This document shows positions 20,812 through 36,349 of a stretch of 64,000 nt of DNA, one piece after another. How positions within the stretch are numbered: position 1 is the stretch's first letter; every line of letters starts with the position of its first letter. A program made the translations under genes and the position numbers. Below the pieces are notes generated by a model that saw only the letters and a list, made by a program, of their open reading frames with translations, was not told the DNA's origin and searched no databases. The stretch is taken from assembly GCA_963664225.1 (NCBI GenBank), contig OY760937.1:3008001-3072000 (forward strand), read 5' to 3'. This DNA comes from Verrucomicrobiia bacterium (GTDB lineage: Bacteria; Verrucomicrobiota; Verrucomicrobiia; Limisphaerales; UBA1319).

Positions 20812-22491
20812 ATGGCGGATATGCAGGAATTGCTGGGTCAAATGATTGAGAGGCGGCAGATGTCGCCCCGGGATGCGGAACTGCTGGCACACCAGTGCCA
20901 GCAGGGCCGCAATCCGGCCGTTCAAAGCGAGGATGATGTGCTGCGCTGGCTGGCCCAGGAATATGACCTGAGCTTTTCGGCGCTGGAAGGCATCGAACTC
21001 GACCGCCAGTTACTGTCGCTTTTTCCCGCCCGCATCTTATTCAAGGAGCAGGTATTACCCCTGAGCCGGACCAACGGAACGGTGGAGATTGCCACCAGCC
21101 GTTTGTTTTCCACCCAGGGTCTGGATGCGCTCAAGACCCTGACCGGTCTGAAACTCAAGCCGGTGCTGGCACCCACGGAGGCCATTCAGCGCGAGATCAA
21201 GAAACAGTTGGGCGTTGGCGCGGACACGCTGGGCACGCTCGAGGAAGAGACCCCTCTCCAGGTGGTGGACGAGGATCGGGACGAGGATACCAATCTGGAC
21301 AGCGCGGCGGAGGATGCCTCGATCATCCGGTTCGTCAATCAGGTGCTCCACGACGCGGTGGAATTGCGGGCCTCGGATATTCATCTGGAGCCATTTGAGA
21401 ACGAACTGCAAATCCGCTACCGCATTGACGGCGTGCTCCAGGAAGTGCCCGTTCCCCCGCAAATCAAACGCTTTCAGCCGGCCATCGTCTCCCGCGTCAA
21501 GATTTTGAGCCATTTGAACATCGCCGAAAAACGACTGCCCCAGGACGGACGCATCAAGATCCGCTCGGACAAAATCGAGATCGACATCCGCGTGTCGATC
21601 ATTCCCATGCTGCATGGGGAGGCGGTGGTCCTGCGTCTTTTGCGCCAGGACACCTCGTTGTTCAACATGTCCGACCTGGGCATGGCGGACCGGGAATACA
21701 AACTTTTCAAGTCGGTGCTGGGGATGCCGCATGGGATCATGCTGGTGACCGGGCCGACCGGCAGCGGCAAGACGAGCACGCTTTACACCGCGTTGAACGA
21801 AATCAACGACAAGGTGCGCAAGATCATCACGATTGAAGACCCCATCGAATATCAGATGCGCGGGATCAACCAGATTCAGGTTTCCGAGAAATCGGGCCTG
21901 ACATTTGCAAGGGGATTGCGTTCGATTTTGCGCCACGATCCCGATGTGGTGCTGATTGGTGAAATTCGCGATGAAGAGACGGCGCAGATCGCCGTGCAAG
22001 CCTCGCTCACAGGGCATCTGGTGTTTTCCACGCTGCACACGAATGACGCGCCCGGGGCGCTGACACGCCTGGTGGACATGAACGTGGAGCCTTACCTGGT
22101 GGCCTCGTCGCTGGAGGCGGTGCTGGCGCAACGGCTGGTGCGTGTGCTCTGCCCGCACTGCAAAACGGTGGATGATTCGCCGGCGGCCAGGGCCTTGACG
22201 GAAGAAGAGCCGCAACTGCACGGGGCGAAGTTGTTCCGGGCGGTCGGATGCCGGGAATGCCGGGAGACGGGTTATTTCAGCCGGCACGCCATTTTTGAAA
22301 TGATGGTGCTGGATAACGAGATCCGGCGGATGATTCTCAAGAGTTGCTCCAGCGGGGAAATTCTTGAGGTGGCCCGGCGCAACGGGCTCAGAACCCTGCG
22401 CCAGGACGGCTGGCGGTTGGTGCACGAGGGAGTGACCACGGCGGACGAAGTCATGCGTGTCACCAAGGATCAGGCCACGATCCGGGAGTAA
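20812..22491 (+). CDS. gspE: Type II secretion/T4P assembly ATPase GspE/PilB family
   Basis: ASDIHLEP, RLPQDGR, Walker A GPTGSGKT, TIEDPIEY, LRHDPDVVLIGEIRD, TGHLVFSTLHTN, CPHC..CREC. Confidence 0.96.
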   Translation: MADMQELLGQMIERRQMSPRDAELLAHQCQQGRNPAVQSEDDVLRWLAQEYDLSFSALEGIELDRQLLSLFPARILFKEQVLPLSRTNGTVEIATSRLFSTQGLDALKTLTGLKLKPVLAPTEAIQREIKKQLGVGADTLGTLEEETPLQVVDEDRDEDTNLDSAAEDASIIRFVNQVLHDAVELRASDIHLEPFENELQIRYRIDGVLQEVPVPPQIKRFQPAIVSRVKILSHLNIAEKRLPQDGRIKIRSDKIEIDIRVSIIPMLHGEAVVLRLLRQDTSLFNMSDLGMADREYKLFKSVLGMPHGIMLVTGPTGSGKTSTLYTALNEINDKVRKIITIEDPIEYQMRGINQIQVSEKSGLTFARGLRSILRHDPDVVLIGEIRDEETAQIAVQASLTGHLVFSTLHTNDAPGALTRLVDMNVEPYLVASSLEAVLAQRLVRVLCPHCKTVDDSPAARALTEEEPQLHGAKLFRAVGCRECRETGYFSRHAIFEMMVLDNEIRRMILKSCSSGEILEVARRNGLRTLRQDGWRLVHEGVTTADEVMRVTKDQATIRE

Positions 22492-22734
22492 CGCCATGAC
22501 CCATCCCGGTAAGAGCATGACCAGGTTCGCAAAAGGGGCTTCCAGCGGGGAGACGCCAGCGATACAACCCGACTTCTGCGGCACAAACCTGCCTTCATTA
22601 ACTTCAATTGCGGGTGGCCACAGGTCCTCGCAGGCAGGGACGTCTGCACTACAGCCCAATTTCCAGTGGAGGGATGCCGCGGAAACCTTCCGGCAAGGCC
22701 CCCTGCGCCACAGCCCAATTTTCAGGAGGCTCGC

Positions 22735-23976
22735 ATGATCGCATTTGAATACCGGGCGATCGAGCCCAAGGGAACGGTGGTTACCGGGAACCTCCAGGCC
22801 GAAGGGCGGCAGGACGCCTTTCGCCAGTTGGAGGCCAAAGGCCTGAGACCCCTCAAGCTTGCCGAGACCAATGCCGCCACCGGCACGGCCAAGGACAAGG
22901 ACGACGCGAAGGGTTGGAACCTGGAATTGCGGTCGAACAAGATCACGGCGCGGATGCTCGAGGATTTCACGCGGCTGCTATCGAACCTTCTTGCGGCGGG
23001 CATTTCTCTGAGCCGCGCCCTGGTGATTCTGCACCGGGAAGCCCCGTCTCCCGCAGCGGCGGAGAAGTGGAAGGCGATTCATGACCGGGTGGTGGACGGA
23101 ATGTCCCTGGCGGACGCGATGGCCCTGTCCCCGGAGGTGTTTCCGAGGGTTTATGTGGCCATGGTGCAGGCGGGCGAGGCGGGCGGCTTTTTGGACGTGG
23201 TGCTGGCGCAGATCGCGGATTTTCAGGCGCGGGACAAGGAAATGCGCTCGAAGATGCTCACGGCGATGCTTTACCCGATGATTTTGCTGGTGCTGGCGGT
23301 GGGGGTGTTGATCTTCCTGCTGGTTTTCTTTATTCCACAGTTTCAGCTTTTGTTTGCCGGGTTTGGCGCGGCGCTGCCCTTGATCACCCAGATCATCGTC
23401 GGGGCCAGCGTGGTGGTGCGCACCTATGGACTGTTCGTGGCGGCGGCGATCGCGATTGTGTTTTTCTCGGTCCGCAACTGGTTCAAATCCCCGGCGGGCA
23501 GCCGTGTATGGGAGAAATTGATGTTGCGAATGCCCGTGGTGGGGCCGCTGGTGGCGAAGTTCGCCATGGCGCGCTTTTGCCGGATGCTCGGGACGCTGCT
23601 GGGCGCGGGGGTGCCCTTGATCAACGGGTTGAACGTGGCGCGCAAATCGCTGGGCAACCAAATGCTGACCGATGCGGTGGCCGAATCGATTGAGCGGGTG
23701 CAAAAGGGCGATCCCCTGGGAACAAGCCTTTCGGGCTGCAAAGAGCTGTTCAGCGGTTCGGTGCGGGAGATGATTTCTGTGGCGGAGGAAACGGGGCGAC
23801 TGGACCAGGAACTGGTGCGTCTGGCCAATGTGACCGAGGTGGACCTGGACCGTCAGTTGAAAACGGCCGTGGCATTCGCGGAGCCGGTGATGCTCTTTGT
23901 GATCGCCGGGTTCATTGGCACCATCTTCATCGGCATGGTCATCCCCATATTCTCAGTTCAGGATTATATTAAATAA
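22735..23976 (+). CDS. gspF: Type II secretion inner-membrane platform protein GspF
   Basis: FEYRAI, MVQAGEAGG.LD, AMLYP, EETGRLD, EPVM..; GGAGG RBS before 22735. Confidence 0.94.
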   Translation: MIAFEYRAIEPKGTVVTGNLQAEGRQDAFRQLEAKGLRPLKLAETNAATGTAKDKDDAKGWNLELRSNKITARMLEDFTRLLSNLLAAGISLSRALVILHREAPSPAAAEKWKAIHDRVVDGMSLADAMALSPEVFPRVYVAMVQAGEAGGFLDVVLAQIADFQARDKEMRSKMLTAMLYPMILLVLAVGVLIFLLVFFIPQFQLLFAGFGAALPLITQIIVGASVVVRTYGLFVAAAIAIVFFSVRNWFKSPAGSRVWEKLMLRMPVVGPLVAKFAMARFCRMLGTLLGAGVPLINGLNVARKSLGNQMLTDAVAESIERVQKGDPLGTSLSGCKELFSGSVREMISVAEETGRLDQELVRLANVTEVDLDRQLKTAVAFAEPVMLFVIAGFIGTIFIGMVIPIFSVQDYIK

Positions 23977-23995
23977 ACCCAATAAAAAGACGTTT

Positions 23996-24454
23996 ATGCA
24001 AATCAACACGCGCATCGCGCTTCGAAACAAACTCGGATCCCGCAGCGGCTTCACGCTGGTGGAATTACTGCTGGTGCTGGTGATTCTGGCCACCCTGGCG
24101 GCCATTGTGGTTCCCAAATTCTCAGGCCGCACCGAACAGGCGCGGGTGACGGCGGCCCAGACCCAGATCTCCAACTTCGGCGTGGCGCTGGATTCCTTCG
24201 AAGTGGACTGCGGCTTTTATCCCAAGGGCAAATCCGGGTTGCAGGACCTGGTGACACAGCCCCGGGACGCCGCCAACTGGCACGGGCCTTATATCAAGGG
24301 CGAGATTCCCAAGGATCCATGGGGCAACGAATACGTTTATGAATGCCCCGGCAAACATAACGACAAATCCTACGACATCATGTCGATGGGGCCCGACGGA
24401 CGGACCGGCGGGGATGACGACATCTGCAACTGGCAGACCAACTCGAAGAAGTAA
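23996..24454 (+). CDS. gspG: Major pseudopilin GspG
   Basis: SGFTLVELLLVLVILATLAAIVVPK; WHGPYI, PKDPWGNEYVY, SMGPDG..GGDDDI.NW. Confidence 0.95.
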   Translation: MQINTRIALRNKLGSRSGFTLVELLLVLVILATLAAIVVPKFSGRTEQARVTAAQTQISNFGVALDSFEVDCGFYPKGKSGLQDLVTQPRDAANWHGPYIKGEIPKDPWGNEYVYECPGKHNDKSYDIMSMGPDGRTGGDDDICNWQTNSKK

Positions 24455-24456
24455 TC

Positions 24457-25014
24457 ATGCGGTTCCCGGCAAACAACGTGGCGTTCACCCTGGTGGAACT
24501 CATCCTGGTGATGGCGCTGCTGACGATCGTCATGGCGGTGGCCGCGCCCTCGTTGTCCAAGTTTTTTCGCAGCCGGGATATCGAGACGGAGGCGGGTCGT
24601 TTTGTGGCGCTGACGCGCTACGGACAAAGCCAGGCGGTGTCGCTGGGTAAACCGATGGTTTTGTGGGTGGATCCCCAGGAGGGCTGTTACGGATTGGATG
24701 AGCAGGGAACCTCGCCAGCCAACAGGGTCCGAACTGGCAACGACCGCAATAAAACCCAGACGGGCGTGAGCGATGGGAGCGGGCGGTATTTCGAACTGCG
24801 CGAGCACAGCAGCATCGAAGTGAGCCGCACGGACCAGCTCACCAATGGACTGGCCTCCATGCGATTCACGCCGGACGGGGCCATCGATGAGAACAGTGTG
24901 CGGCAGGTATTCATCCGGGACGATGAGGACAGCGCCATCCCGGTCCAGCAATCACGCAACCGGTTGTATTATGAAATTGGGCCACGCACCAACATGGTCA
25001 ACGCGAGGCGTTAG
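24457..25014 (+). CDS. gspH: Minor pseudopilin GspH/FimT-like
   Basis: AFTLVELILVMALL..AAPSL; RFTPDG; position after gspG. Confidence 0.85.
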   Translation: MRFPANNVAFTLVELILVMALLTIVMAVAAPSLSKFFRSRDIETEAGRFVALTRYGQSQAVSLGKPMVLWVDPQEGCYGLDEQGTSPANRVRTGNDRNKTQTGVSDGSGRYFELREHSSIEVSRTDQLTNGLASMRFTPDGAIDENSVRQVFIRDDEDSAIPVQQSRNRLYYEIGPRTNMVNARR

Positions 25015-25366
25015 GCGGGCGTTCACCTTCGCGGAGGTGCTGGCGGCACTGGCCTTCATGGCCATTGTTGTGCCGGTGGCCATGCGGGGCGTGCAGGTGG
25101 CCAACCGCGCGGGAGCCGTGGCCGCGCGCAAGGGGGTGGCAACCCGACTGGCGGAAACGAAGCTGCAGGACCTGGTGGCGACGGGGGATTGGCGCACCGG
25201 AGTGCGACAGGGACAATTTGAAGGGCAATGGAAAGATTACCGGTGGCGGTCGTTGAATGAGACCTGGAGCCAGGACAGCATGCGGCTGATCTCGGTGGAA
25301 GTGACTTACGTGGTTCAAAACCAGGATTACACCGTTCTTTTGGGATCCCTGGTGGTAAACAATTGA
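24971..25366 (+). CDS. gspI: Minor pseudopilin GspI-like
   Basis: RAFTFAEVLAALAFMAIV prepilin motif; short; YRWR..ISVEVTY. Confidence 0.85.
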   Translation: MKLGHAPTWSTRGVRRAFTFAEVLAALAFMAIVVPVAMRGVQVANRAGAVAARKGVATRLAETKLQDLVATGDWRTGVRQGQFEGQWKDYRWRSLNETWSQDSMRLISVEVTYVVQNQDYTVLLGSLVVNN

Positions 25367-26145
25367 TGAAAGCGATCCATGTCATGCGGTCAGGCCGGCG
25401 CCTCCCGGGGTTCACCCTGGTGGAGGTGCTTGTGGCCACCGTTTGCATTGCGATCGTCATTCTGGCGCTCAATTCCACCATCTTCACCGCCATGCGGCTG
25501 CGCACGAAAACGACGGAACTGGTGGAAAAGGCCATTCCGTTGCAACATGCGCTGACCCTGATCACCCGGGACTTGCAGGGGATCATGGCCTCCAACGGAA
25601 CCCTGGCGGGATCGTTGACCGCAGGAACCTCCCTGAGCACCGGATCCGCGCAGATGGGCGCCAACTCGGGCACCGCCCAGCCGGGATCGATTCAGTTCCG
25701 CACCTCGACGGGCGTGATCAGCGACGATGAAGAGGTTTACTGGGGGGACGTTCAAAACGTGTCCTATTATTTGCGCCAGTCCAGCACCTCCGATGACACT
25801 TCCGCTCCTGGAAAGGAACTGGTGCGGGCTGTGACGCGCAACCTCCTGGCCGTCAATACGAACGATTTGACCGAACTGCCGCTCCTGGATGGGATCAAAA
25901 CCCTGGAGTATCTGTTCTACGACGGCACGCAATGGACCAATGCCTGGGATTCGACGGTGGCCAGTCCCGCATTGCCGCAGGCCATCAAGCTGGTCATCAC
26001 GATGGAGCCGGATGAGGACCAAAACCAAAACCACCAAAACCACCAAAACCAGATACAGCTCCAGACGCCCTTTGAAATCACGGTTCCCGTGCTTGTTCAA
26101 ACCCGGTCCAATGTGACGGCGTCGGCCAGCGGAGGTGGAATGTGA
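25363..26145 (+). CDS. gspJ: Minor pseudopilin GspJ-like
   Basis: GFTLVEVLVA; ITRDL; FYDGTQWTNAWDS...LPQAIKL. Confidence 0.87.
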   Translation: MMKAIHVMRSGRRLPGFTLVEVLVATVCIAIVILALNSTIFTAMRLRTKTTELVEKAIPLQHALTLITRDLQGIMASNGTLAGSLTAGTSLSTGSAQMGANSGTAQPGSIQFRTSTGVISDDEEVYWGDVQNVSYYLRQSSTSDDTSAPGKELVRAVTRNLLAVNTNDLTELPLLDGIKTLEYLFYDGTQWTNAWDSTVASPALPQAIKLVITMEPDEDQNQNHQNHQNQIQLQTPFEITVPVLVQTRSNVTASASGGGM

Positions 26146-27527
26146 AGGTGCTCGCGATCATCAACGTGGGAGCAGGCACGATGCGGCGGCGAAGCGGCCA
26201 GGGTGGAACGTGCGGCTCGGTGTTGATCATTGTCCTGTGGATTGCCTTCGGGCTGGTGAGCATCGCCCTTTATTTCGGGCATTCGATGGTCTTTGCCTAT
26301 CGCGCCTCCGACCAATACCAGGCGGGTGTGGAAGCGGACCTGGCGATGGAGGGGGCGGCGCGTTACGTCGGCTACATCCTCACCAACGCGGCCAGCATCG
26401 GCCAGATTCCCGAAACGAACGCCTATCTGACGGCGGGGGTTTCCATCGGCAACTCGACGTTCTGGCTGATCGGTCGGGGCGATCCGGAGGCCCGGCAGAC
26501 GGTGCCCACCTATGGCCTGATCGATGAGGCGTCGAAATTGAATCTCAACACCGCCACCACGAACATGCTCGAGGGTCTGCCGCGCATGACACCGGAACTG
26601 GCGGCGGCCATCATCGACTGGCGCGATTCCGATGAGGAGGCCACGAGCGGTGGGGCTGAGGCTGAATATTATCAACGGCGCAATCCGCCCTATTATTGCA
26701 AGAACGCGCCTTTTGAAACCATCGAAGAATTGCGTCTGGTGGCGGGAACCGACCTGACCATCCTTTACGGGGAGGACGCCAATTTGAACGGGATTCTCGA
26801 TGCGAACGAGAACGATGGTAATGCCTCGCCGCCGGATGACAACCGCGACGGCAAGCTCGATCCGGGCATTCTGGAATATGTGACGGTGTTTTCGCGGGAG
26901 TCCAATATTCGCACCAACGGGGAGCCGCGGATCAATGTGAACAGCTCGACGAATAATGCCGCGCTCAGGACGTTATTGCAGACGGCGATCGGGCAGCAGC
27001 GCGCCGGCCAGGTGCAGAGCCGGATTTCGGCGGGCGCGGGACGGTGGCGCAGCCTGCTGGAAGTCTATCTCAACAGCGGAATGACGACGGCGGAATTCGG
27101 GCTGGTTTACAACGACATCAGTGTGACCAACCGGGCGCAGATCGAGGGCCTGATCAATATCAATACGGCCCCCGCCGCCGTGCTGGCCTGCATTCCCGGC
27201 ATCGGTCCGGACAATGCGCCCCAGGTGCTGGCCTACCGCCTTTCCAAAACGGTGGACGAACTTAAATCCGTGGCCTGGATCACACAAGTGCTCGACCGGG
27301 CCTCCGCGATGGCGGCGGGCCCCTACATCACCACCCAGAGCTACCAATTCTCCGCGGACATCGCGGTCACAGGCCATGATGGCAAGGGCTATCGGCGTAG
27401 CCTGTTTGTTTTCGATACGAGCGAAGGCGCGTCCAAGATTCTCTACCGCCGCGATCGCGGGCGTTTGGGCTGGGCACTGGGCGCCGAATCCCGGACCGGC
27501 CGGACGCAAGGAAAGTTAATTCGTTAA
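26142..27527 (+). CDS. gspK: Minor pseudopilin GspK-like
   Basis: GSVLIIVLWI, DEASKLNLN, IIDWRD.D, PFETIEELRLV, ININTA helix-hairpin-helix. Confidence 0.9.
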   Translation: MKVLAIINVGAGTMRRRSGQGGTCGSVLIIVLWIAFGLVSIALYFGHSMVFAYRASDQYQAGVEADLAMEGAARYVGYILTNAASIGQIPETNAYLTAGVSIGNSTFWLIGRGDPEARQTVPTYGLIDEASKLNLNTATTNMLEGLPRMTPELAAAIIDWRDSDEEATSGGAEAEYYQRRNPPYYCKNAPFETIEELRLVAGTDLTILYGEDANLNGILDANENDGNASPPDDNRDGKLDPGILEYVTVFSRESNIRTNGEPRINVNSSTNNAALRTLLQTAIGQQRAGQVQSRISAGAGRWRSLLEVYLNSGMTTAEFGLVYNDISVTNRAQIEGLININTAPAAVLACIPGIGPDNAPQVLAYRLSKTVDELKSVAWITQVLDRASAMAAGPYITTQSYQFSADIAVTGHDGKGYRRSLFVFDTSEGASKILYRRDRGRLGWALGAESRTGRTQGKLIR

Positions 27528-28963
27528 TGAAACTGTTTAAATCATATCGCCCCTCGTCGGTGTTGGGCCTGGCGTTGGAAGGCCGCCAGCTCGAAGGAGT
27601 CTTGTTGCGACGCTCCAATGGAGGGTTCATGGTGGCGCGCCGATTGCACACCACACTCTCCCTGGATCTCCTGACGGACGATCCGGAACTGGTGGGCCGT
27701 GAAATCCGCAATCACCTCGAGGAGGTGGGCATCCACGAGCGCCGGTGCGTGATGTGCGTGCCCCTGCAATGGGCGTTGACGCTCTCGGTGCCGGTTCCCG
27801 ACCTGTCCGCGGAGGATGCGGAAGCCTTTCTGCACATGGAAGCCGAACGGAGCTTTCCCTATTCGCCTGACGATCTTTCGATCATCCAATCCCGGCATGT
27901 CGATGCCAGGGGCGGCGGTTATGTCTCGCAGGTGGCCATTCCCAAGGCCCACCTGGCGCGCGTGGAACAATCTCTGCGGGCCGCGCGGCTCAAGCCGGTA
28001 AGTTTTTCTCTGGGGATCACCACGCTCACTGCGGTGGCGCCCACCACGGAGGGTTTGCTCACGCTGACGCTGGGGGAAGGTTCCGTGGAATTGCAGGTTT
28101 CAACCGGCGGCGGGGTGGCGGCGCTCCGAACCATCGAGGGCGCCTTTGAAACCGACGGTGGCAGGACCTGCGCGGATGCGGATCTGGTGAGCCGGGAAAT
28201 CCGCATCACCCTTGGCCAATTGCCCAAGGCGCTGCGGGATCCCATCAAGCGGGTGCGGGTGTTTGGCCCCGAGACCGGGGTGCATCCATTGCTCGACGAA
28301 CTCCGGCCCGGCCTCAAGGAAATGAACCTGGCGTGTGAGCAGGGGGTTCTGCCGTCGATCGATGGATTCGATTCTCTGGCACCCGGACAAAGCGGGGCGG
28401 CCGGAGCGGCGGCTCTTGCGGCGGTTTGGCTCAAGGGGGAGGAACCGGATTTCGAATTTTTGCCGCCGCGCCAGAATCCCATGACCCAGATGCTCACGCG
28501 GTTCTCCTCGCGGCGTGTGCTCTATGCGGGGGCGGCGGTGGGGGCGGTGGCGCTGGTGGTGGCACTGATGTTTTCCTGGCAGCAATGGAAGCTCTCCTCG
28601 CTGGAATCGCGCTGGCGGGAGATCAAGCCGCGTGTGGAGGACATTGTGGCCATCCAGCAGCAGATGCGAAAATTCCGGCCGTGGTTCGATGTCTCGGCGG
28701 AGAACCTGCGCGTGCTGCGCAAGCTCACCGAGGCGTTTCCCGTGGAAGGTTCGGTCACAGCGAAGACGCTGGAAATAAAGGATTTGACCGAAATCAATTG
28801 CTCGGGCCAGGCCCGGGACAACCAGGCGATGCTCAAGCTGCTGGATCAATTGCGGGTGTCTCCGGCGATCAGCGATGTGAAAGTCCAGCAGGTGCGCGGC
28901 AAGTCTCCCCTGCTATTCAATCTGAGCTTTCGATGGACGGAAGGGGCAAGCCATGAAAATTAA
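27527..28963 (+). CDS. GspL / PilM-PilN-like alignment protein
   Basis: Cytoplasmic actin-like N-part, single TM, C-terminal PilN-like fold (SGQARDNQAMLKLLDQL); position after gspK. Confidence 0.72.
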   Translation: MKLFKSYRPSSVLGLALEGRQLEGVLLRRSNGGFMVARRLHTTLSLDLLTDDPELVGREIRNHLEEVGIHERRCVMCVPLQWALTLSVPVPDLSAEDAEAFLHMEAERSFPYSPDDLSIIQSRHVDARGGGYVSQVAIPKAHLARVEQSLRAARLKPVSFSLGITTLTAVAPTTEGLLTLTLGEGSVELQVSTGGGVAALRTIEGAFETDGGRTCADADLVSREIRITLGQLPKALRDPIKRVRVFGPETGVHPLLDELRPGLKEMNLACEQGVLPSIDGFDSLAPGQSGAAGAAALAAVWLKGEEPDFEFLPPRQNPMTQMLTRFSSRRVLYAGAAVGAVALVVALMFSWQQWKLSSLESRWREIKPRVEDIVAIQQQMRKFRPWFDVSAENLRVLRKLTEAFPVEGSVTAKTLEIKDLTEINCSGQARDNQAMLKLLDQLRVSPAISDVKVQQVRGKSPLLFNLSFRWTEGASHEN

Positions 28964-29486
28964 GAATCGCGAGAAATTATTGCTGTTGGGCGCGGCCCTG
29001 GTGGTGGGGCTGCTGGTGGGGGATAAACTGGTGCTCACGCCCCTGACGCGGGTCTGGACGGCGCGTTCGAAGGCAATCGCGGACCTTACCAAATCACTCA
29101 ACGACGGCTCGGTGCTGCTGAGCCGGGAACGCGATGTGCGCGAGCGCTGGACGGGCATGACCAGCAACACGCTTCCGGCCAATGTCTCGATGGGCGAGAG
29201 CATCGTCCTCAAGGCCGTGGACCGCTGGGTGCAGGCCAGCCAGATCAGTTTCACGTCGATCAAACCGCAATGGAAACAGAACGCCGAGGATTACATGACG
29301 CTGGAATGCCGGGTGGATGCCTTTGGAGGGATGGAAGCCCTGACCCGTTTTCTATACGAGATGGAGACCGATCCCCTGGCCATCAAGGTGGAGGATCTGG
29401 AAATTACCGCGCGCGACACGGCTGGACAACAGCTCTCTCTGGGCGTGCGCTTCACCGGCCTGATGCTGACTCCCGAGAAAAAATGA
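28953..29486 (+). CDS. GspM / PilO-like protein
   Basis: MKIKNREKLLL + TM, C-terminal ALTRFLYEME..IKVEDLEI. Confidence 0.72.
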   Translation: MKIKNREKLLLLGAALVVGLLVGDKLVLTPLTRVWTARSKAIADLTKSLNDGSVLLSRERDVRERWTGMTSNTLPANVSMGESIVLKAVDRWVQASQISFTSIKPQWKQNAEDYMTLECRVDAFGGMEALTRFLYEMETDPLAIKVEDLEITARDTAGQQLSLGVRFTGLMLTPEKK

Positions 29487-30493
29487 AACCGCTTGAAAAA
29501 CGACGAAAACGGACCGGTTCAGGGCTGCGACTCCTGGTGGCCCAGGGGATGGCATTGCTATGGCTGGGCGGAGTGGTGACGCCAGCCCAGCAAGGGCCTC
29601 CGGGCCCGGATACGAACCAGCCTGGGCCATCAGCCCAGGAACCCTCCGCAGGACCGGAGACCAACCCACCAGCCGGACCTGCCGCCGAGCCGCCCATGAA
29701 CCCGGGGCCCGATCAAGGCCCGCCGCCGGAACAGGAACCGGACGCAGACGCGCAAGCCAAAACACAGGAGGCGCCGGAGCAAATCAAGGTTTCGCCCGCG
29801 GCAACCAATCCATCGGCGATCACGGAGAAGAGACCGGTCCCAACCTCTGGAACCAACCAATTGCAATCGCTGGCCGCAGAGCAAAAGCCCGTTGCCACCG
29901 GGACAACCAACTCACCGGTAGTGCGGGAACAGAAATCGACCAGGAACCGGGAATCCAGGCGTCGGACGGCGCCGGAGGAGGATTCCGCCGTGGGCACGGG
30001 AACGAATCTGTTGGCCTTCAAGATCATTTACGAGCGCAATATATTTAATCCGAATCGCGGACCGCGCGCCTCGCGCCGCAATGAGGCGGATGCGCCCAAG
30101 CCGGTGAAGATCGAGGGTTTTTCACTGGTGGGAACGTTGATGTCGGACAAGGGGGCCTATGCCTTCTTCGATGGCACGGAGGCCCGCTACCAGGCGGCGC
30201 TCCAAACCTCCAATAAAATCGCCGGTTATACGGTGGCGGCGATCAACCCGAATTTTGTCACGCTGCGCTCGCCCAGCAACAGCTTCGATTTGGTCATGAA
30301 CATGCAAATGCGAAAACAGGACGAGGGGGACTGGGAATTGACGGTCGCGACGGGTTCCTGGAACAGCACCAACAGCGCTTCTTCAACCAACGCCACCGTG
30401 GGGGCTTCGGATGAAGAAGGGGGCAACGATGCCGCGGCGGATGCAGTGATGAAACGATTGATGAAAAAACGTGAAGAGGAGTTGAAAAAATGA
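29483..30493 (+). CDS. GspC/PilP-like protein with long Pro-rich linker
   Basis: N-terminal hydrophobic segment, Pro/Thr-rich linker, ERNIFNP..FSLVGTL..AFFDG..IAGYTVAAI..VTL; overlaps both neighbours. Confidence 0.55.
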   Translation: MKPLEKRRKRTGSGLRLLVAQGMALLWLGGVVTPAQQGPPGPDTNQPGPSAQEPSAGPETNPPAGPAAEPPMNPGPDQGPPPEQEPDADAQAKTQEAPEQIKVSPAATNPSAITEKRPVPTSGTNQLQSLAAEQKPVATGTTNSPVVREQKSTRNRESRRRTAPEEDSAVGTGTNLLAFKIIYERNIFNPNRGPRASRRNEADAPKPVKIEGFSLVGTLMSDKGAYAFFDGTEARYQAALQTSNKIAGYTVAAINPNFVTLRSPSNSFDLVMNMQMRKQDEGDWELTVATGSWNSTNSASSTNATVGASDEEGGNDAAADAVMKRLMKKREEELKK

Positions 30494-32106
30494 AAGCTTT
30501 GAAATTGTCCGGTTTACTCATGATCTCGGCGATGGGGATCCATCCGGCCCAGGCGCAGGAGGCGACCAACGCCGCTCCCGCAGAAACCAAACCCGTGCTG
30601 AGCGCGCCAGCCCAGACCAATGACACCGCGCAGGCCAATCCGCCCCCGGCGGATCAAAAAGGAACGCCCCCGGCGGCCACGCCCGTGCCCATGGTGACGA
30701 CGGCAACGAACTCCACGGTGTCTTCGAATGCGGCGCCCGGGGCCCTGACGAATGCCGCGGGCGAGAAGTTGTTGCGCCTGAATTTCCATGGGGTGCCGCT
30801 CTCGATGGTGCTGACCTACCTGAGCGATGCGGCCGGGTTCATCATTGTGCTGGAGACCGAGGTGACCGGCAAAGTCGATGTCTGGAGCCAGAACCCCGTG
30901 ACGGTTGACGAGGCGGTCAACCTGCTCAACTCCATCCTCAATAAAAATGGCTACGCCGCCATTCGCAACGGACGCACGCTCACGGTGGTCAGCCGCGCCG
31001 ATGCCAAGACGCGCGATATCCCGGTGAAGATCGGCAGCAACCCGGCGGAAATTCCCAAGAACGACGAAATGGTCACACAAATCGTTCCCGTCCGCTACGC
31101 CAACGCGGTGCAAATGGTCAAGGACTTGCAACCCTTGCTGCCGGCCTATGCGTCGCTCACGGCCAATGAGAGCGGCAATGCGCTCGTTTTGACGGACGTG
31201 CAGTCGGATATCCGGCGCATCGTTCAAATCGTCAAGGCGCTGGACACCTCCATCTCGAGCATTTCCACGGTCAAGGTGTTTCCGCTGCGTTTCGCGGATT
31301 CCAAGGAACTGGTGGCGGAGGTCAAGGAGCTGTTCCCCACCCAAAACGCCGCGGGCAACGGCGCTAACAACAATCCCATGGCGATGTTCCCGGGCTTCGG
31401 CGGACGAGGCCGGCAAAACACCCAGGCCGCGAGCACCAGCGAAGCCCGCACCGCCGCCGGACGCGTGACGGCCGTGGCGGATGAACGCACGAATTCGTTG
31501 GTCGTGAGCGCCCCGGATGATGCCATGCCGGTGATCGAACAGTTGGTCAAGGAAATCGACACCAACGCGGAAAACATCACCGAGCTGCGGGTTTTCCATC
31601 TCAAATATGCCGATCCCGTGGAAATGGCCGATCAGTTGACCTCGCTGTTCCCGGATACGACATCGAGCGCCAACGCGCGCTCCTCGATCCAGTTCGGACG
31701 GGGCGGATTCATGCGCGGGGCCATGGGGGGCGCCCAGGCCGCGACCTCCAGCAGCCGGGCCCAGCAAAAGAACCGCGTGCTGGCTGTGCCGGATCAGCGC
31801 ACGGCCTCGGTGATTGTGACCGCGGCATCCGATCTGATGCCTCAGATTTCGCTGATGATCGAACAGTTGGACGCGAACCCGGCGAAAAAGCAGAAGGTGT
31901 TCGTCTATTCGCTGGAAAACGCCGATGTGGATAATGTCGTGGGCGTTTTACAGGACATGTTCCAATCCTCGAACTCGCGCGGCTCCTCGACGAGCACACG
32001 GCAGAATAATGCCCTGAGCACGCGCCAAACCCAATCCAGCCAGTCCACGTCCTCTTCGACGTCGGGTAACAACCGCAGCTCGGGTGGCGGAGGCTTCGGA
32101 AACTAG
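30490..32106 (+). CDS. gspD: Secretin N-terminal periplasmic domains only (N0/N1/N2 plus first half of N3)
   Basis: Signal peptide; LRLNFHGVPL (N0), repeated NolW-like domains (VRYANA, LRFADS, LKYAD, LENAD; ADERTNSLVV); ends in a Ser/Gly loop with no secretin barrel. Confidence 0.85.
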   Translation: MKALKLSGLLMISAMGIHPAQAQEATNAAPAETKPVLSAPAQTNDTAQANPPPADQKGTPPAATPVPMVTTATNSTVSSNAAPGALTNAAGEKLLRLNFHGVPLSMVLTYLSDAAGFIIVLETEVTGKVDVWSQNPVTVDEAVNLLNSILNKNGYAAIRNGRTLTVVSRADAKTRDIPVKIGSNPAEIPKNDEMVTQIVPVRYANAVQMVKDLQPLLPAYASLTANESGNALVLTDVQSDIRRIVQIVKALDTSISSISTVKVFPLRFADSKELVAEVKELFPTQNAAGNGANNNPMAMFPGFGGRGRQNTQAASTSEARTAAGRVTAVADERTNSLVVSAPDDAMPVIEQLVKEIDTNAENITELRVFHLKYADPVEMADQLTSLFPDTTSSANARSSIQFGRGGFMRGAMGGAQAATSSSRAQQKNRVLAVPDQRTASVIVTAASDLMPQISLMIEQLDANPAKKQKVFVYSLENADVDNVVGVLQDMFQSSNSRGSSTSTRQNNALSTRQTQSSQSTSSSTSGNNRSSGGGGFGN

Positions 32107-32114
32107 GAACCATC

Positions 32115-33341
32115 ATGAACCTGGCTAATAAAACCATTTTGAATAAAGAAAGAAATATGATTGCAAGGCATTTTCGATTTGCGGGCGTTCTGGCCCTGCT
32201 CCTGGTGTTGTTCCTGGCCGACGCCACGCGCGTCCTGGCCCAGGCCACGCGCAGCGGCAGTTCAACCCGCAGCGGCAGCAGTTCCCGCTCGGGCTCCAGC
32301 TCCCGCTCGTCCACGCGGGAATACAACTCCAACGGCATGATCGGTGATGCCATGATCAGCAGCGATCCCGAGACGCGCCGCATCATTGTGATCACCGACG
32401 AAGACACCAATCTGAGCATCAGCCAGGTGGTGACCAATCTGGACCGGCCCAAGCCGCAGGTCCTCATCAAGGTCGTGTTCCTCGAGGTCACGCACAATGG
32501 CGGTTCGGACATTGGTGTGGAAGGCAGTTACACCCACAAGATCAGCAACTCGACAACAGGGACTGTTTCAACGCTCTTCGGCGGAATGGCCCAGCAGACC
32601 AGCGGCGGATTCTACAAGGTTCTCAGCGATGATTTTCAGGTGACCTTGCGGGCCATTCAAACGGCCGGAAAAACCGAGGTGCTCTCCCGCCCGTCGATTC
32701 TGGCCCGGAATAATCAGCTGGCGACCATCATCGTGGGTCAGGAGATTCCCATCATCACGGCCACCCGGCTGGATATTAACAATAATCCCATCAACACCAT
32801 TTCCTATCAGGACATCGGCATCATCCTGCGAGTGACCCCGTTCATCACCTCGGACAATCTGGTGGAAATGATCGTCTCGCCCGAGATTTCGAGCCTCACG
32901 GACCAGACCGTGCCCATCGCCTCCAACGTCAGCGCGCCGGTCATTTCAAAGCGCTCCGCGGACACCGTGGTGGTCACACCCGACGGCTCGCCCGTGGTCA
33001 TCGGCGGTTTGATGCAGAACCAGAAGATCGAATCGGTGCAGAAAGTGCCGCTGCTGGGGGATATCCCATGGCTGGGGATGGCCTTCAAACGCACCATCAA
33101 AACGGACACAAAAACCGAGTTGATTATGATTCTGATTCCGCATATTGTACAGAAGCCCTCGCAACTGGCCGCCATGTCGGATCATGAGCGCGGGCAGAAC
33201 GAAATGACCCCCAAGGCCTTTTCTGAGAAGGAGCTCGACCGCTACATCGACACTCTGCCGGTGAAGACGGAGACAGTGCCTGGAACCGATCCCGTGCCAG
33301 ACACCACGAAGAAATCATCCAGCAAGAAGAAGAAAAAGTGA
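32115..33341 (+). CDS. gspD: Secretin C-terminal barrel protein with its own signal peptide
   Basis: Signal MIARHFRFAGVLALLLVLFLADATRVLA-Q (alternative start 32157); LDRPKPQVLIKV, LSRPSIL, VGQEIP, YQDIGIILRVTP, IGGLM, KVPLLGDIPWLG.AF, TELIMILIPHIV. Confidence 0.9.
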   Translation: MNLANKTILNKERNMIARHFRFAGVLALLLVLFLADATRVLAQATRSGSSTRSGSSSRSGSSSRSSTREYNSNGMIGDAMISSDPETRRIIVITDEDTNLSISQVVTNLDRPKPQVLIKVVFLEVTHNGGSDIGVEGSYTHKISNSTTGTVSTLFGGMAQQTSGGFYKVLSDDFQVTLRAIQTAGKTEVLSRPSILARNNQLATIIVGQEIPIITATRLDINNNPINTISYQDIGIILRVTPFITSDNLVEMIVSPEISSLTDQTVPIASNVSAPVISKRSADTVVVTPDGSPVVIGGLMQNQKIESVQKVPLLGDIPWLGMAFKRTIKTDTKTELIMILIPHIVQKPSQLAAMSDHERGQNEMTPKAFSEKELDRYIDTLPVKTETVPGTDPVPDTTKKSSSKKKKK

Positions 33342-33348
33342 CCCACAC

Positions 33349-34968
33349 ATGTTCGCGCGCAACAAACTAATCTTCCGCCTGCTGGTGGCTGTGTGGGCGG
33401 TCATCATCGTCTGGCAGGCGATGGAACATCACCGGGTGACGGAGCAGGCCCGAACGGCGGTCATCAGCCGCGCGCGCGACATCACGGGCACACTGGGGCT
33501 GGTCATCCGATCCCAGCGGCGGTTTGGCGCCATTGTTTCCAAACCCAGGCTCGAATCCGCCCTCAAAGAGCTGGTCAACTCCGACAAGCTCAAATCGATC
33601 GTTCTGCTCAATGCCTCCGGGGACGAGGTGGTTTCCGCGGGCGAACCAGTCGATTTGAACAACAAAGGCGTGCCTCAAAAGGATATTCACTGGGGCAAGA
33701 ACACCGTGACCATTGTGAACCTGGTGGATCTGGGGGCCTCGCTCCAGCAGGACGGCACCAATTCTGTTCCCACCATTGTCGTCACGGAGCCCAATCCCCG
33801 GGATATTCATCGGGACAACTGGCCCCGCTTTGGCCCCCCGCCTGCGGGCACGGGCCCCGGTGATGAAGGCGGCACCAACAGGCCCGCCCCCGATATGACG
33901 CGCACCAATATCCCCCCGCCGCCACCCAACATGGAGCATGGTGAAGACGGGCCCGGCGATGGTCCGCCCCCGCGCGACATGGTGCGCTCGAATATGCCGC
34001 CTCAGGACATGCGCCGCTTTGCGGGCCCCCGTTCCGGCTTTCGCCGTCCGCCCTGGATGAGCGAGGAGGAGTATAAATCGGTGATTGAGAAGAAGGGTTT
34101 GCACGGTCTGGCGGTGGTGCTCTCCACCATTGATTTTGAGGAGGCATCGATGCGCGATCTTTGGATGCGGCTGGTGATCTGCGGATTTGCCGGATTATCG
34201 GTCGTGAGTTTTGGACTGGCCTGGCGGAACCTGGTGAAGTCCTCCGAATTGCAGATGCGCCTGGTGCGCGCCCGTGAGGCCAATTCGCAGTTGCGCGAGA
34301 TGAACGTGGCGGCGGCGGGCCTGGCCCACGAGACCCGCAACCCGCTGAACATCATTCGCGGCCTGGCCCAGATGATTTCCAAGGCGCCGGATGTGCCGCA
34401 GGAAATCCGCCAGAAGTCCGTGGATATCACGGGCGAGGTGGACCAGGTCACGGTGCGGCTCAACGAATTCATCAATTATTCCAAGCCACGCGAGGTGCGC
34501 CGCTCCCCGGTGCTGGTCAGCGCGGTGGTCGCGGATGTGGCGCGTGCTCTCAAGAGCGACCTCGAGGACAAGGAGATCACACTGGAGCAGCGTGTGGAAG
34601 GCATCACGATCAACGCCGACCAGCAGTTGCTCCGTCAGGCGCTCTTTAACCTGGTGCTTAACGCGATCCAATCCGTGGAGCCCAAGGGCAGGATTGAGAT
34701 TGCCACGCGCAAATCCGGTCCGCAGGAGGCCTGTTTCGAGATCTCGGACAACGGTCCGGGCGTGCCGGAAAGCCAGCGCACCGAGATCTTCCGCCCCTAT
34801 TTCACGACCCGCGAAAAGGGCACCGGCCTGGGCTTGGCCATTGTCAAACAGATCGTCATGGTACATGGTTGGGAAATCGAGTGTCTGGCCAATGACGGCA
34901 AAGGCGCGCTATTCCGCGTCAGCCGCATTGAGCTGATCGCTCCCAAAACCGAACATGCCGCCAGCTAA
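33349..34968 (+). CDS. Membrane sensor histidine kinase (ZraS/NtrB-like)
   Basis: Two TM helices around a Pro/Met-rich periplasmic domain; AAGLAHETRNPL, NLVLNAIQ, DNGPG, GTGLGLA. Confidence 0.92.
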   Translation: MFARNKLIFRLLVAVWAVIIVWQAMEHHRVTEQARTAVISRARDITGTLGLVIRSQRRFGAIVSKPRLESALKELVNSDKLKSIVLLNASGDEVVSAGEPVDLNNKGVPQKDIHWGKNTVTIVNLVDLGASLQQDGTNSVPTIVVTEPNPRDIHRDNWPRFGPPPAGTGPGDEGGTNRPAPDMTRTNIPPPPPNMEHGEDGPGDGPPPRDMVRSNMPPQDMRRFAGPRSGFRRPPWMSEEEYKSVIEKKGLHGLAVVLSTIDFEEASMRDLWMRLVICGFAGLSVVSFGLAWRNLVKSSELQMRLVRAREANSQLREMNVAAAGLAHETRNPLNIIRGLAQMISKAPDVPQEIRQKSVDITGEVDQVTVRLNEFINYSKPREVRRSPVLVSAVVADVARALKSDLEDKEITLEQRVEGITINADQQLLRQALFNLVLNAIQSVEPKGRIEIATRKSGPQEACFEISDNGPGVPESQRTEIFRPYFTTREKGTGLGLAIVKQIVMVHGWEIECLANDGKGALFRVSRIELIAPKTEHAAS

Positions 34969-36349
34969 AGGATCCGCAGACCATAACGAGGGGCCGTGCA
35001 TTCTGATCGTCGATGACGATGCGGGACAGCGCAGCCTGCTGGACTCCTTTTTGCGCGGCCAGGGTTTCCAAACCATCGTCGCCTCCTCCGGGGAAATGGC
35101 CCTTGAAGCCCTGGGCGTCCACCCCGTGAGCATGATGATTTCGGACGTTCGCATGCCGGGCATGACCGGTCTGGAAACCCTTCGCAAGGCCCGCCAACAG
35201 CATGCCGTCCTGCCCGTCCTGCTCGTCACCGCGTTTCCCGATGTGCGTGACGCCGTGGGGGCTATGCGCGATGGCGCGGTCAATTACCTGGAAAAACCGA
35301 TCGACCTGGACGAATTGCTGGCCACGGTGCGCAAAACCACCGGAATGGAAACGCCCGCCGCGCCCATACTGGCCCAGATGCCGCCGTTGCCCGAAGGAGT
35401 CGTGGCCATGAGCCCGCTCATGCAGGCCGTGTTCCGGGACGCCTTCCTGGTGGCCACCTCGGACAGCCGCATCCTCATCACCGGGGAAAGCGGCGTGGGC
35501 AAGGAAATCCTGGCCGACGTCATCCACGCCTGGAGTCCCCGCGCGGCGGGTCCGCTGATCAAAATGAATTGCGCAGCCATTCCCGAGAACCTGCTGGAGA
35601 GCGAGCTTTTCGGACACGAAAAAGGGGCGTTCACCGGCGCGGTCAGCCAGCGCATCGGGCGGTTCGAGGAAGCCAGCACAGGCACACTGCTCCTGGACGA
35701 GATTGCGGAACTCTCCTCCGGTCTCCAGGCCAAGCTCCTGCGCGCGGTTCAGGACGGGAAGTTTCAGCGCGTGGGTTCCAACAAGGAACTCCACACGCAC
35801 GCCCGCATTCTCGCCGCCACGAATCGGAATCTGGAGAAGGAAGTGGAGCAGGGGCGGTTTCGCGAGGATTTGTTCTACCGCCTGAATGTCATTGAACTTT
35901 TCGTTCCGCCGCTGCGCGAACGCGTGGCGGACATTGTGCCACTGGCGGGCCAATTTGTGGCTTCATTTTCAAATCGCCGGGCCCGCTTTTCCGCCGCGGT
36001 CATCCAGGTGCTCGAGCATTATTCCTGGCCGGGAAACGTGCGCGAACTGCGCAACGCCATGGAACGGGCCACCCTGCTCGCCCACGGTGAATTGATCCTG
36101 CCGGACCACCTGCCCATGCGGATGCGCCAGCCAGCGCCCGGCGTGGCCGTCCCCGATGGTTCGCAACCCGGCCCGGCCAGTCAATCCAGTCAATTGGAAG
36201 ACCTGGAACGCCAGGCCATTCTGCAGGCCCTGAGCGATCATCGCTACAACCGCACGGAAACCGCCAAGGCCCTGGGCATCAGCCGCCGCGCCCTCACCTA
36301 TAAAATCCAGTATCTCAAGGAAGCCGGTTTCCAGACCGATCCGGTGTGA
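34955..36349 (+). CDS. Sigma-54-dependent response regulator (NtrC/ZraR family)
   Basis: Receiver ILIVDDD..SDVRMPG; GESGVGKE, GAFTGA, FREDLFYRLNV, WPGNVREL; Fis-type HTH. Confidence 0.96.
   Translation: MPPAKGSADHNEGPCILIVDDDAGQRSLLDSFLRGQGFQTIVASSGEMALEALGVHPVSMMISDVRMPGMTGLETLRKARQQHAVLPVLLVTAFPDVRDAVGAMRDGAVNYLEKPIDLDELLATVRKTTGMETPAAPILAQMPPLPEGVVAMSPLMQAVFRDAFLVATSDSRILITGESGVGKEILADVIHAWSPRAAGPLIKMNCAAIPENLLESELFGHEKGAFTGAVSQRIGRFEEASTGTLLLDEIAELSSGLQAKLLRAVQDGKFQRVGSNKELHTHARILAATNRNLEKEVEQGRFREDLFYRLNVIELFVPPLRERVADIVPLAGQFVASFSNRRARFSAAVIQVLEHYSWPGNVRELRNAMERATLLAHGELILPDHLPMRMRQPAPGVAVPDGSQPGPASQSSQLEDLERQAILQALSDHRYNRTETAKALGISRRALTYKIQYLKEAGFQTDPV

Follow-up and report, generated by a model that had tools for sequence, protein, structure and literature searches.

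Two genes that each encode part of a secretin

Can the outer-membrane gate of a secretion machine be built from two separately encoded chains? Secretins are the gates shared by type II and type III secretion, type IV pili and filamentous phage export, and they are treated as homo-oligomers of a single chain. We analysed a stretch of 64,000 nucleotides (hereafter, the window) from a Verrucomicrobiia bacterium of the Limisphaerales (assembly GCA_963664225.1, contig OY760937.1, positions 3,008,001 to 3,072,000 of the forward strand), in which a type II secretion system (T2SS) operon ends in two adjacent genes. A sequence-only reading had described these as one secretin divided between two exported proteins. 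We conclude that the pair is likely to encode a working two-chain secretin that arose by fission within a domain, the two half-domains complementing one another in trans.

All coordinates below are window positions, and every feature described lies on the plus strand. The open reading frames (ORFs) of both genes were found precisely where the sequence-only reading had placed them. Gene 1 (gspD-N, the secretin periplasmic module; 30490..32106) encodes 538 residues and gene 2 (gspD-C, the secretin barrel module; 32115..33341) encodes 408, as assigned from the ORFs, Pfam, TIGR02517 and AlphaFold2, with a fold match in addition for gene 2. Gene 2 lies in another frame than gene 1 and starts 8 nucleotides past its TAG stop.

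When the products were scanned against Pfam, gene 1 matched N0 (PF21305, 44 bits, residues 97-162) and Secretin_N (PF03958, 131.6 bits in three stretches), and gene 2 matched Secretin (PF00263) alone, with 150 bits against a cut-off of 27.5 (residues 180-346). The GspD equivalog model, TIGR02517, was tiled by the two products: gene 1 covered positions 1-292 (229.5 bits) and gene 2 positions 267-599 (226.8 bits), both under the cut-off of 351.35. Neither gene thus carries all the GspD domains in one polypeptide at the equivalog cut-off. The best fold match of gene 2 was PulD (6hcg, E 9.9e-20), followed by 5zdh, 5w68, 5wq7 and 5wln.

Gene 1 is made up of the following parts. A predicted signal peptide (30490..30555, residues 1-22) ends in A-Q-A followed by Q in the translation, with a helix at residues 5-14 in the model. 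The N0 domain (30766..30993, residues 93-168) is supported by PF21305 and by the AlphaFold2 model, and is followed by three complete N (ring-building) domains (31069..31872; residues 194-253, 260-362 and 364-461). After these comes an orphan first half of the last N domain, consisting of strand 1 and helix 1 (31891..31977, residues 468-496), and a low-complexity Ser/Thr/Gly tail running to the TAG stop (31978..32106). The tail holds one conserved short motif, in which R512 is invariant and L509 is found in at least 90% of the aligned sequences.

Gene 2 begins with a predicted signal peptide of its own (32115..32240), with a hydrophobic core at about residues 22-36 and A42 preceding Q43. This is followed by a Ser/Arg/Gly repeat linker (32241..32351) that is disordered in the model and ends, before strand 2, in a conserved R-x-Y-x-x-N-G-x-x-G-x-A motif (residues 68-79). 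The orphan second half of the last N domain (strand 2, strand 3 and helix 2; 32352..32450, residues 80-112) leads into the secretin barrel domain (32451..33152, residues 113-346), which carries the PF00263 match of 150 bits. The C-terminal extension (33153..33341) has predicted helices at residues 348-363 and 371-379 and a Lys-rich end. Its residues F369, L374 and P382 are conserved in the alignment, and from the model it may be the equivalent of an S-domain or pilotin-binding region.

The cut lies in a loop of the barrel-adjacent N domain

Where does the boundary between the genes fall in the secretin fold? Gene 1 residues 462-538, scanned alone, matched Secretin_N profile positions 1-26 of 69 (18 bits), and gene 2 residues 60-118, scanned alone, matched positions 31-69 of 69 (14.9 bits). 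Both scores are below the Secretin_N cut-off of 28.2 bits, and the two matches jointly tile the profile.

The AlphaFold2 models, made of the single chains, place the boundary at the same point. In the gene 1 model (mean predicted local distance difference test score, pLDDT, 63.6), N0 at residues 93-168 is followed by three complete beta-alpha-beta-beta-alpha domains. Past residue 461 the model shows a lone helix (480-496) and a disordered tail, in which there is a short helix (508-515) of low confidence. The second and third N domains of gene 1 also have a long, low-confidence loop running from helix 1 to strand 2. In the gene 2 model (mean pLDDT 69.4), a hydrophobic N-terminal helix (7-42) and a disordered region (42-76) precede two strands (80-84 and 89-93) and a helix (96-110), and the strands of the barrel begin at residue 115. 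When a profile built from relatives of gene 2 is aligned with solved GspD chains, the match starts at the second half of N3 (aligned spans: XcpQ 5wln, 272-586; PulD 6hcg, 295-601; GspD 5wq7, 267-585).

The cut is therefore in the loop between helix 1 and strand 2 of the N domain adjacent to the barrel. The anatomy given by the sequence-only reading stands, with complementary halves of the last N domain in the two genes and the barrel wholly in gene 2; so does its view that a disordered loop lies at this point, a loop that we find to be long and of low complexity in one-piece relatives. Its placing of the cut inside N3 is right by position, next to the barrel, but not by count, as this is the fourth Secretin_N-type domain.

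The split is conserved throughout the order

Is the split genuine? Orthologues of gene 2 were collected from 40 related genomes (50-66% identity). At all 19 loci returned, a gene 1 homologue lay directly upstream of gene 2 in a separate ORF, and 8 further related loci were likewise split. Six orthologues in open frames of 614-942 residues were considered as fused exceptions and rejected, since these frames merely overlap a separate gene 1; with these six the total comes to 33 split loci out of 33. A species collection (one genome per species; loci of 48-67% identity), which overlaps in origin with the 33 related-genome loci, gave 79 split loci out of 80, none fused and one without upstream DNA. 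Because the same cut was seen in every orthologous locus examined, the split is far beyond chance.

The junction itself was also checked in other assemblies. Assemblies of public runs from two studies yielded contigs that match the window across 31500-32800 without a single difference or gap, and a third run covers the junction as two identical pieces; these contigs are assemblies rather than raw reads, and one of the runs may be the window's own source.

A sequencing or assembly error, or a recent pseudogene, has in its favour only the bare stop inside a family that is normally in one piece, and we give it next to no probability. The comparative data refute it: the same cut recurs at all 33 related-genome loci and at 79 of the 80 in the species collection, in more than 80 genera of the order, the contigs from two studies are identical, and throughout the order both genes keep their domain cores and 50-66% amino-acid identity. 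Three observations could have overturned the sequence-only reading, namely a single-chain orthologue, an indel at the junction and a gene 2 that lacks a signal peptide; no fused gene was found among the 33 and 79 loci, no indel in the contigs of the two studies, and gene 2 does show the features of a signal peptide (see below). The view of that reading that this is no simple frameshift error agrees with the conservation of the split across the order. The split is genuine, old and under selection, and has been inherited by a whole order of Verrucomicrobia, which has retained it throughout its history.

We further estimated the inheritance of the two genes in a sample of 201 genomes of the order, with thresholds of E<=1e-60 for gene 2 and E<=1e-50 for gene 1. 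Gene 2 was present in 129 genomes and gene 1 in 127; 122 genomes had both, 67 had neither and 12 had a single one, and at least 4 of these 12 are explained by contig ends or by scores just under threshold. None of 200 sampled genomes from the phylum outside the order had a gene 2 orthologue at E<=1e-60. Divergent proteins of the same layout do exist beyond the order, one of them labelled Candidatus Sumerlaeota.

The protein databases gave the same picture. The best 120 near-length relatives of gene 2 (373-483 residues) all carry PF00263, three of them with PF03958 as well, and the best 120 relatives of gene 1 (453-614 residues, with up to 942 allowed) carry N0 and Secretin_N and never PF00263. 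An exhaustive search of representatives clustered at 50% identity returned proteins of 266-480 residues as its 23 best matches, the first one-piece protein appearing at 45% identity. The source names of the relatives point to Verrucomicrobiota (subdivision 3, Pedosphaera, Limisphaerales).

Some database records deserve separate mention. Both halves are named 'hypothetical protein' or 'secretin N-terminal domain-containing protein'. Among the longer matches, P0001 and P0002 are apparent fusions that are chimeric or miscalled: P0001 joins GspE domains to a Secretin domain, and in P0002 an internal signal peptide follows a part that seems to be gene 1 read out of frame. Several contigs from metagenome-assembled genomes (MAGs; L045, L049, L060, L062, L083, L086 and others) carry typical split pairs under odd titles (Akkermansia muciniphila, Bifidobacterium sp., Omnitrophota, Cyanophyceae, Haliangiales), which are probably labelling or binning artefacts. 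Such titles could mislead claims on taxonomic spread, and we did not trust them as taxonomy.

Gene 2 carries a conserved, probable signal peptide of its own

Is the downstream product exported independently? By eye, the translated N terminus of gene 2 is basic at first, then has a hydrophobic core, and reads V-L-A just ahead of Gln43. A hydrophobic N-terminal stretch was present in 107 of 120 gene 2 relatives, scored as a 12-residue window near the N terminus with a mean Kyte-Doolittle value above 2.0, which is a crude threshold. In an alignment of 50 sequences, Ala42 and Gln43 are conserved to at least 90%, and the remainder of the peptide is free to vary. A signal peptide that is cleaved would be expected to look like this, and cleavage between the two residues would follow. 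The claim that gene 2 has a signal peptide of its own is thereby supported, the putative peptide being conserved and of the Sec type.

The gene boundary (32107..32156) consists of the 8-nucleotide gap to the first ATG, at 32115, and the sequence up to a second ATG at 32157. The second ATG corresponds to Met15 of gene 2, which is invariant in the alignment and is the called start in one close relative (P0123). The G+C content drops to 0.33 at the boundary. On the plus strand between the genes, promoter-like and terminator-like sites were looked for and none was seen, which is weak evidence that the two genes may be co-transcribed.

These data bear on whether the two frames could be joined during translation. 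Stop-codon readthrough or ribosomal frameshifting at the junction would yield a single polypeptide, and in 8 of 27 loci one stop does separate frames that are in phase. We consider this very improbable. The genes of the window are in different frames with an 8-nucleotide gap; the same frame is shared in 11 of 27 and 29 of 79 loci, which is near the one-third expected by chance, and the spacing varies. A joined product would also place a conserved signal peptide and its Ala-Gln site in the middle of a periplasmic loop, and the dip in G+C content counted against recoding as well.

The two half-domains probably rebuild one domain

How would two such products make one channel? In our working model both would be exported separately by Sec. 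Gene 1 would contribute N0, three N rings and, of the last ring, strand 1 with helix 1; from gene 2 would come the rest of that ring (strand 2, strand 3, helix 2) together with the outer-membrane barrel. The half-domains would interlock in the periplasm by fragment complementation, so that each ring protomer would be a heterodimer of gene 1 and gene 2 products, in a channel laid out like the classical GspD multimer. The export of both chains, the complementation in trans, the stoichiometry and a function in secretion are all inferred.

On its own, half of a beta-alpha-beta-beta-alpha domain lacks a full sheet and a core. The mean column identity of the orphan first half was 0.67, compared with 0.74-0.76 for the same halves of the intact domains. 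The orphan second half reached 0.80, with intact halves at 0.74-0.78 and linkers at 0.38-0.57. The presence of complementary half-domains conserved like intact ones suggests that the domain is rebuilt across the chains, which is the simplest account and the best supported of those considered.

For PulD, passages of one study describe N3, C and S as the assembly-competent core, with N0-N2 dispensable for assembly (PMC4604470); the cut found here therefore crosses a core domain instead of following the border between core and vestibule. By analogy, it is conceivable that assembly of the barrel is coupled to the presence of gene 1.

The same PulD result can be turned towards a different arrangement, in which both proteins are real and the domain is not rebuilt. 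Gene 2 would then be a self-sufficient short secretin and gene 1 a separate periplasmic adaptor ring that makes a different kind of contact with the barrel or the inner-membrane platform, with the half-domains being relics or serving another contact. That PulD, in the passages cited, still assembles without N0-N2 fits such an arrangement (PMC4604470), as do the short secretins, e.g. phage pIV and RcpA, among the fold matches of gene 2, and the existence of orphan gene-1-like paralogues away from any barrel gene (see below). On the other side, a half-domain alone forms no sheet or core, yet both halves are conserved as intact ones are, and the orphan halves jointly tile one Pfam domain. The genes are moreover adjacent in every locus examined and are inherited together (122 genomes with both against 12 with a single one). 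We hold a separate adaptor ring to be quite unlikely.

Several observations weigh against a two-chain secretin with a rebuilt domain. Under the hydropathy threshold fell 13 of the 120 relatives and 16 of the 79 loci, several of these sequences beginning inside the hydrophobic stretch or having a short window; and the signal peptides of both genes were assigned solely from hydropathy, conservation and the -3/-1 rule. Because 67 of the 201 genomes of the order are without both genes, the system to which the secretin pair belongs is dispensable. One relative (G300:C129, L040) has an in-frame TAA inside gene 2, which is a pseudogene or a draft-genome error. Finally, since the PulD core of N3, C and S assembles without N0-N2 in the passages cited (PMC4604470), the barrel protein may get by with part of an N3, and gene 1 might attach differently.

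Origin of the split

From what kind of gene did the pair arise? The nearest one-piece relatives of gene 2 are planctomycete GspD proteins, at 50% identity or less. By eye, the last N domain of these proteins has a Gly/Ser/Thr/Asn-rich run between helix 1 and strand 2, from tens to more than 100 residues long. The pair would descend from an ancestral one-piece GspD whose gene was split inside such a long, disordered loop, where helix 1 leads to strand 2 in the last periplasmic N domain, and the downstream half would have gained its own start codon and Sec signal peptide. As the loop was already long and disordered, no more than a stop, a start and a signal peptide would have been required for the fission.

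In trees of the barrel domain, 30 representatives of the split type, including the window, form one clade (support 99 in FastTree; 100 in a quick IQ-TREE run by the Shimodaira-Hasegawa-like approximate likelihood ratio test, SH-aLRT). A protein of 344 residues from Logan, P0314, has a signal peptide, a short linker, a strand-strand-helix unit and a barrel. It falls among the one-piece, planctomycete-like secretins in both barrel-domain trees, and may represent a second fission at the same loop. An independent second origin was considered and is not established, as the approximately unbiased (AU) test did not reject a single clade of all 31 split rows (p 0.287). A single origin therefore suffices.

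Two further kinds of secretin were seen beside the split clade. P0291 (588 residues, from a metagenome of the JGI) opens with a signal peptide and the second half of the N domain before the last; the last N domain is complete and leads into the barrel, so that the cut would lie in the equivalent loop, one domain closer to the N terminus. In the barrel-domain trees, the sister group of the split clade is made up of giant proteins or open frames, about 1,700-5,300 residues long, that end in a secretin domain (for example G010:C16:32377-33384, G016:C162:92420-93172 and G007:C1:73964-74719; P0325, P0338, P0359 and P0383). No giant secretin-ended protein was found among the 7 Secretin matches in the window's own genome.

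Comparison with known secretins and gene fissions

Is such a pair already known? Classical GspD (PulD 6hcg, XcpQ 5wln, E. coli GspD 5wq7, EpsD 5wq8) has the same domain families in the same order, shares the operon partners gspE to gspM, and gave the best sequence and fold matches. It differs in that there are two genes and two signal peptides here, with a cut in the barrel-adjacent N domain, and one N domain more than the classical N1-N3. The one-piece GspD proteins of Planctomycetota (Phycisphaerae, Tepidisphaeraceae, Humisphaera; P0004, P0007, P0021) are the closest fused relatives of gene 2. By eye they have the same last N domain, the long loop and a similar short motif after helix 1; unlike in the window pair, their loop is continuous, without a stop, start or internal signal peptide.

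The N-terminal periplasmic part and the barrel part are likewise separate products in RhcC1 (NolW) and RhcC2, the two-gene secretin of rhizobial-type type III secretion, as described in passages of two papers (PMC3574062, PMC3973906). In the relevant part of their study, Abby and Rocha regard RhcC1 as the remnant of a type III secretion system (T3SS) secretin and RhcC2 as a Tad-type secretin with a BON domain that was acquired later (PMC3459982). The Rhc pair would, by the same passages, be a partial gene replacement and not a fission, and its genes lie apart (PMC3459982). In the window, by contrast, one ancestral gene would have been cut inside one domain, the genes are 8 nucleotides apart, and the context is a T2SS. 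Gene 2 matches GspD best, shows no BON domain in the Pfam scan, and is thus not of the Rhc type. None of the 60 records listed, out of 1088 plasmid tblastn records, carried an RhcC2 annotation.

A gene fission giving two adjacent genes has been proposed for TadB and TadC, which form the inner-membrane platform of Tad pili, a type IV filament machine, in the passages of that study which deal with the pair (PMC6668835). That cut separates two repeated T2SSF domains, whereas the present one goes through a single small domain and comes with a new signal peptide. The same passages on the TadB/TadC fission make no mention of a split secretin (PMC6668835). In the open-access literature we found no split T2SS secretin, the only two-gene secretin that our searches turned up being RhcC1/RhcC2. 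The window pair is probably a two-chain secretin by intradomain fission, distinct from the Rhc-type pair.

Operon context

With which machine would the pair work? The two genes close a complete T2SS operon on the same strand, running from gspE to gspM. It comprises gspE (20812-22491, Pfam T2SSE), gspF (22666-23976, T2SSF), gspG (23915-24454, T2SSG), gspH (24457-25014, GspH), a small unnamed ORF (24845-25366), gspJ (25363-26145, T2SSJ), gspK (26142-27527, T2SSK), a GspL-like gene of PilM/PilN-like character (27527-28963, weak PilM_2 and PilN matches) and a GspM/PilO-like gene (28953-29486, T2SSM_b/PilO).

Between the last of these and gene 1, at 29483..30493, an ORF encodes a protein of 336 residues with a Pro/Gln/Ala-rich region. 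This ORF overlaps both neighbours, sharing nucleotides at its start with the stop of the GspM-like gene and at its stop with the start of gene 1. This protein had no Pfam match at E<=5 and no PDB sequence match at E<=1; its position is that of GspC or PilP, and from this position it would be a candidate for such a role. Directly downstream of the secretin genes lie a histidine kinase and a sigma-54-dependent response regulator (33349-36349), in a layout that resembles PilS/PilR. The kinase has HisKA and HATPase_c domains and a Pro/Gly-rich insert.

Orphan gene-1-like paralogues

Could the periplasmic part be exchanged? A second gene-1-like gene at another locus was found in 8 of the 127 genomes of the order that bear gene 1 (L187-L194, at G003:C312, G008:C106, G272:C35, G277:C960, G247:C23, G319:C24, G297:C131 and G326:C9). 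These paralogues are 39-50% identical to gene 1 of the window, and all eight begin with a signal-peptide-like sequence and contain N0 and the N domains, as well as the orphan strand-helix and the motif of the tail. No ORF with a secretin domain was found within the 5-8 kb fetched around them, and no T2SS family among the 12 neighbouring frames scanned. Their neighbours include a CotH/EF-hand protein, a GT4 glycosyltransferase, URO-D and a phage terminase. Only one barrel of the gene 2 type was found per genome at E<=1e-60. The window's own genome has no gene-1-like paralogue.

The sequence-only reading had proposed a detachable or exchangeable periplasmic vestibule, and for this the orphan paralogues are a hint only. 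It is a tentative idea, on the unlikely side, that the split makes the secretin modular, with gene 2 as a common outer-membrane socket whose half-domain docks interchangeable exported N-modules. If that were true, the choice of N-module would change the inner-membrane platform or the cargo that is served.

Implications for secretin assembly

What does the split mean for this family? For annotation, the equivalog models miss both halves, and some gene calls wrongly fuse them, as in P0002. The finding is of interest to students of secretin assembly. A natural split through a domain of the assembly core implies, if the rebuilding is true, that the N domain tolerates fragment complementation in vivo, and the cut may couple multimerisation of the barrel to the presence of the periplasmic module. 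The split pair offers a ready system for asking which half drives multimerisation, in what order vestibule and barrel assemble, and whether vestibules can be swapped.

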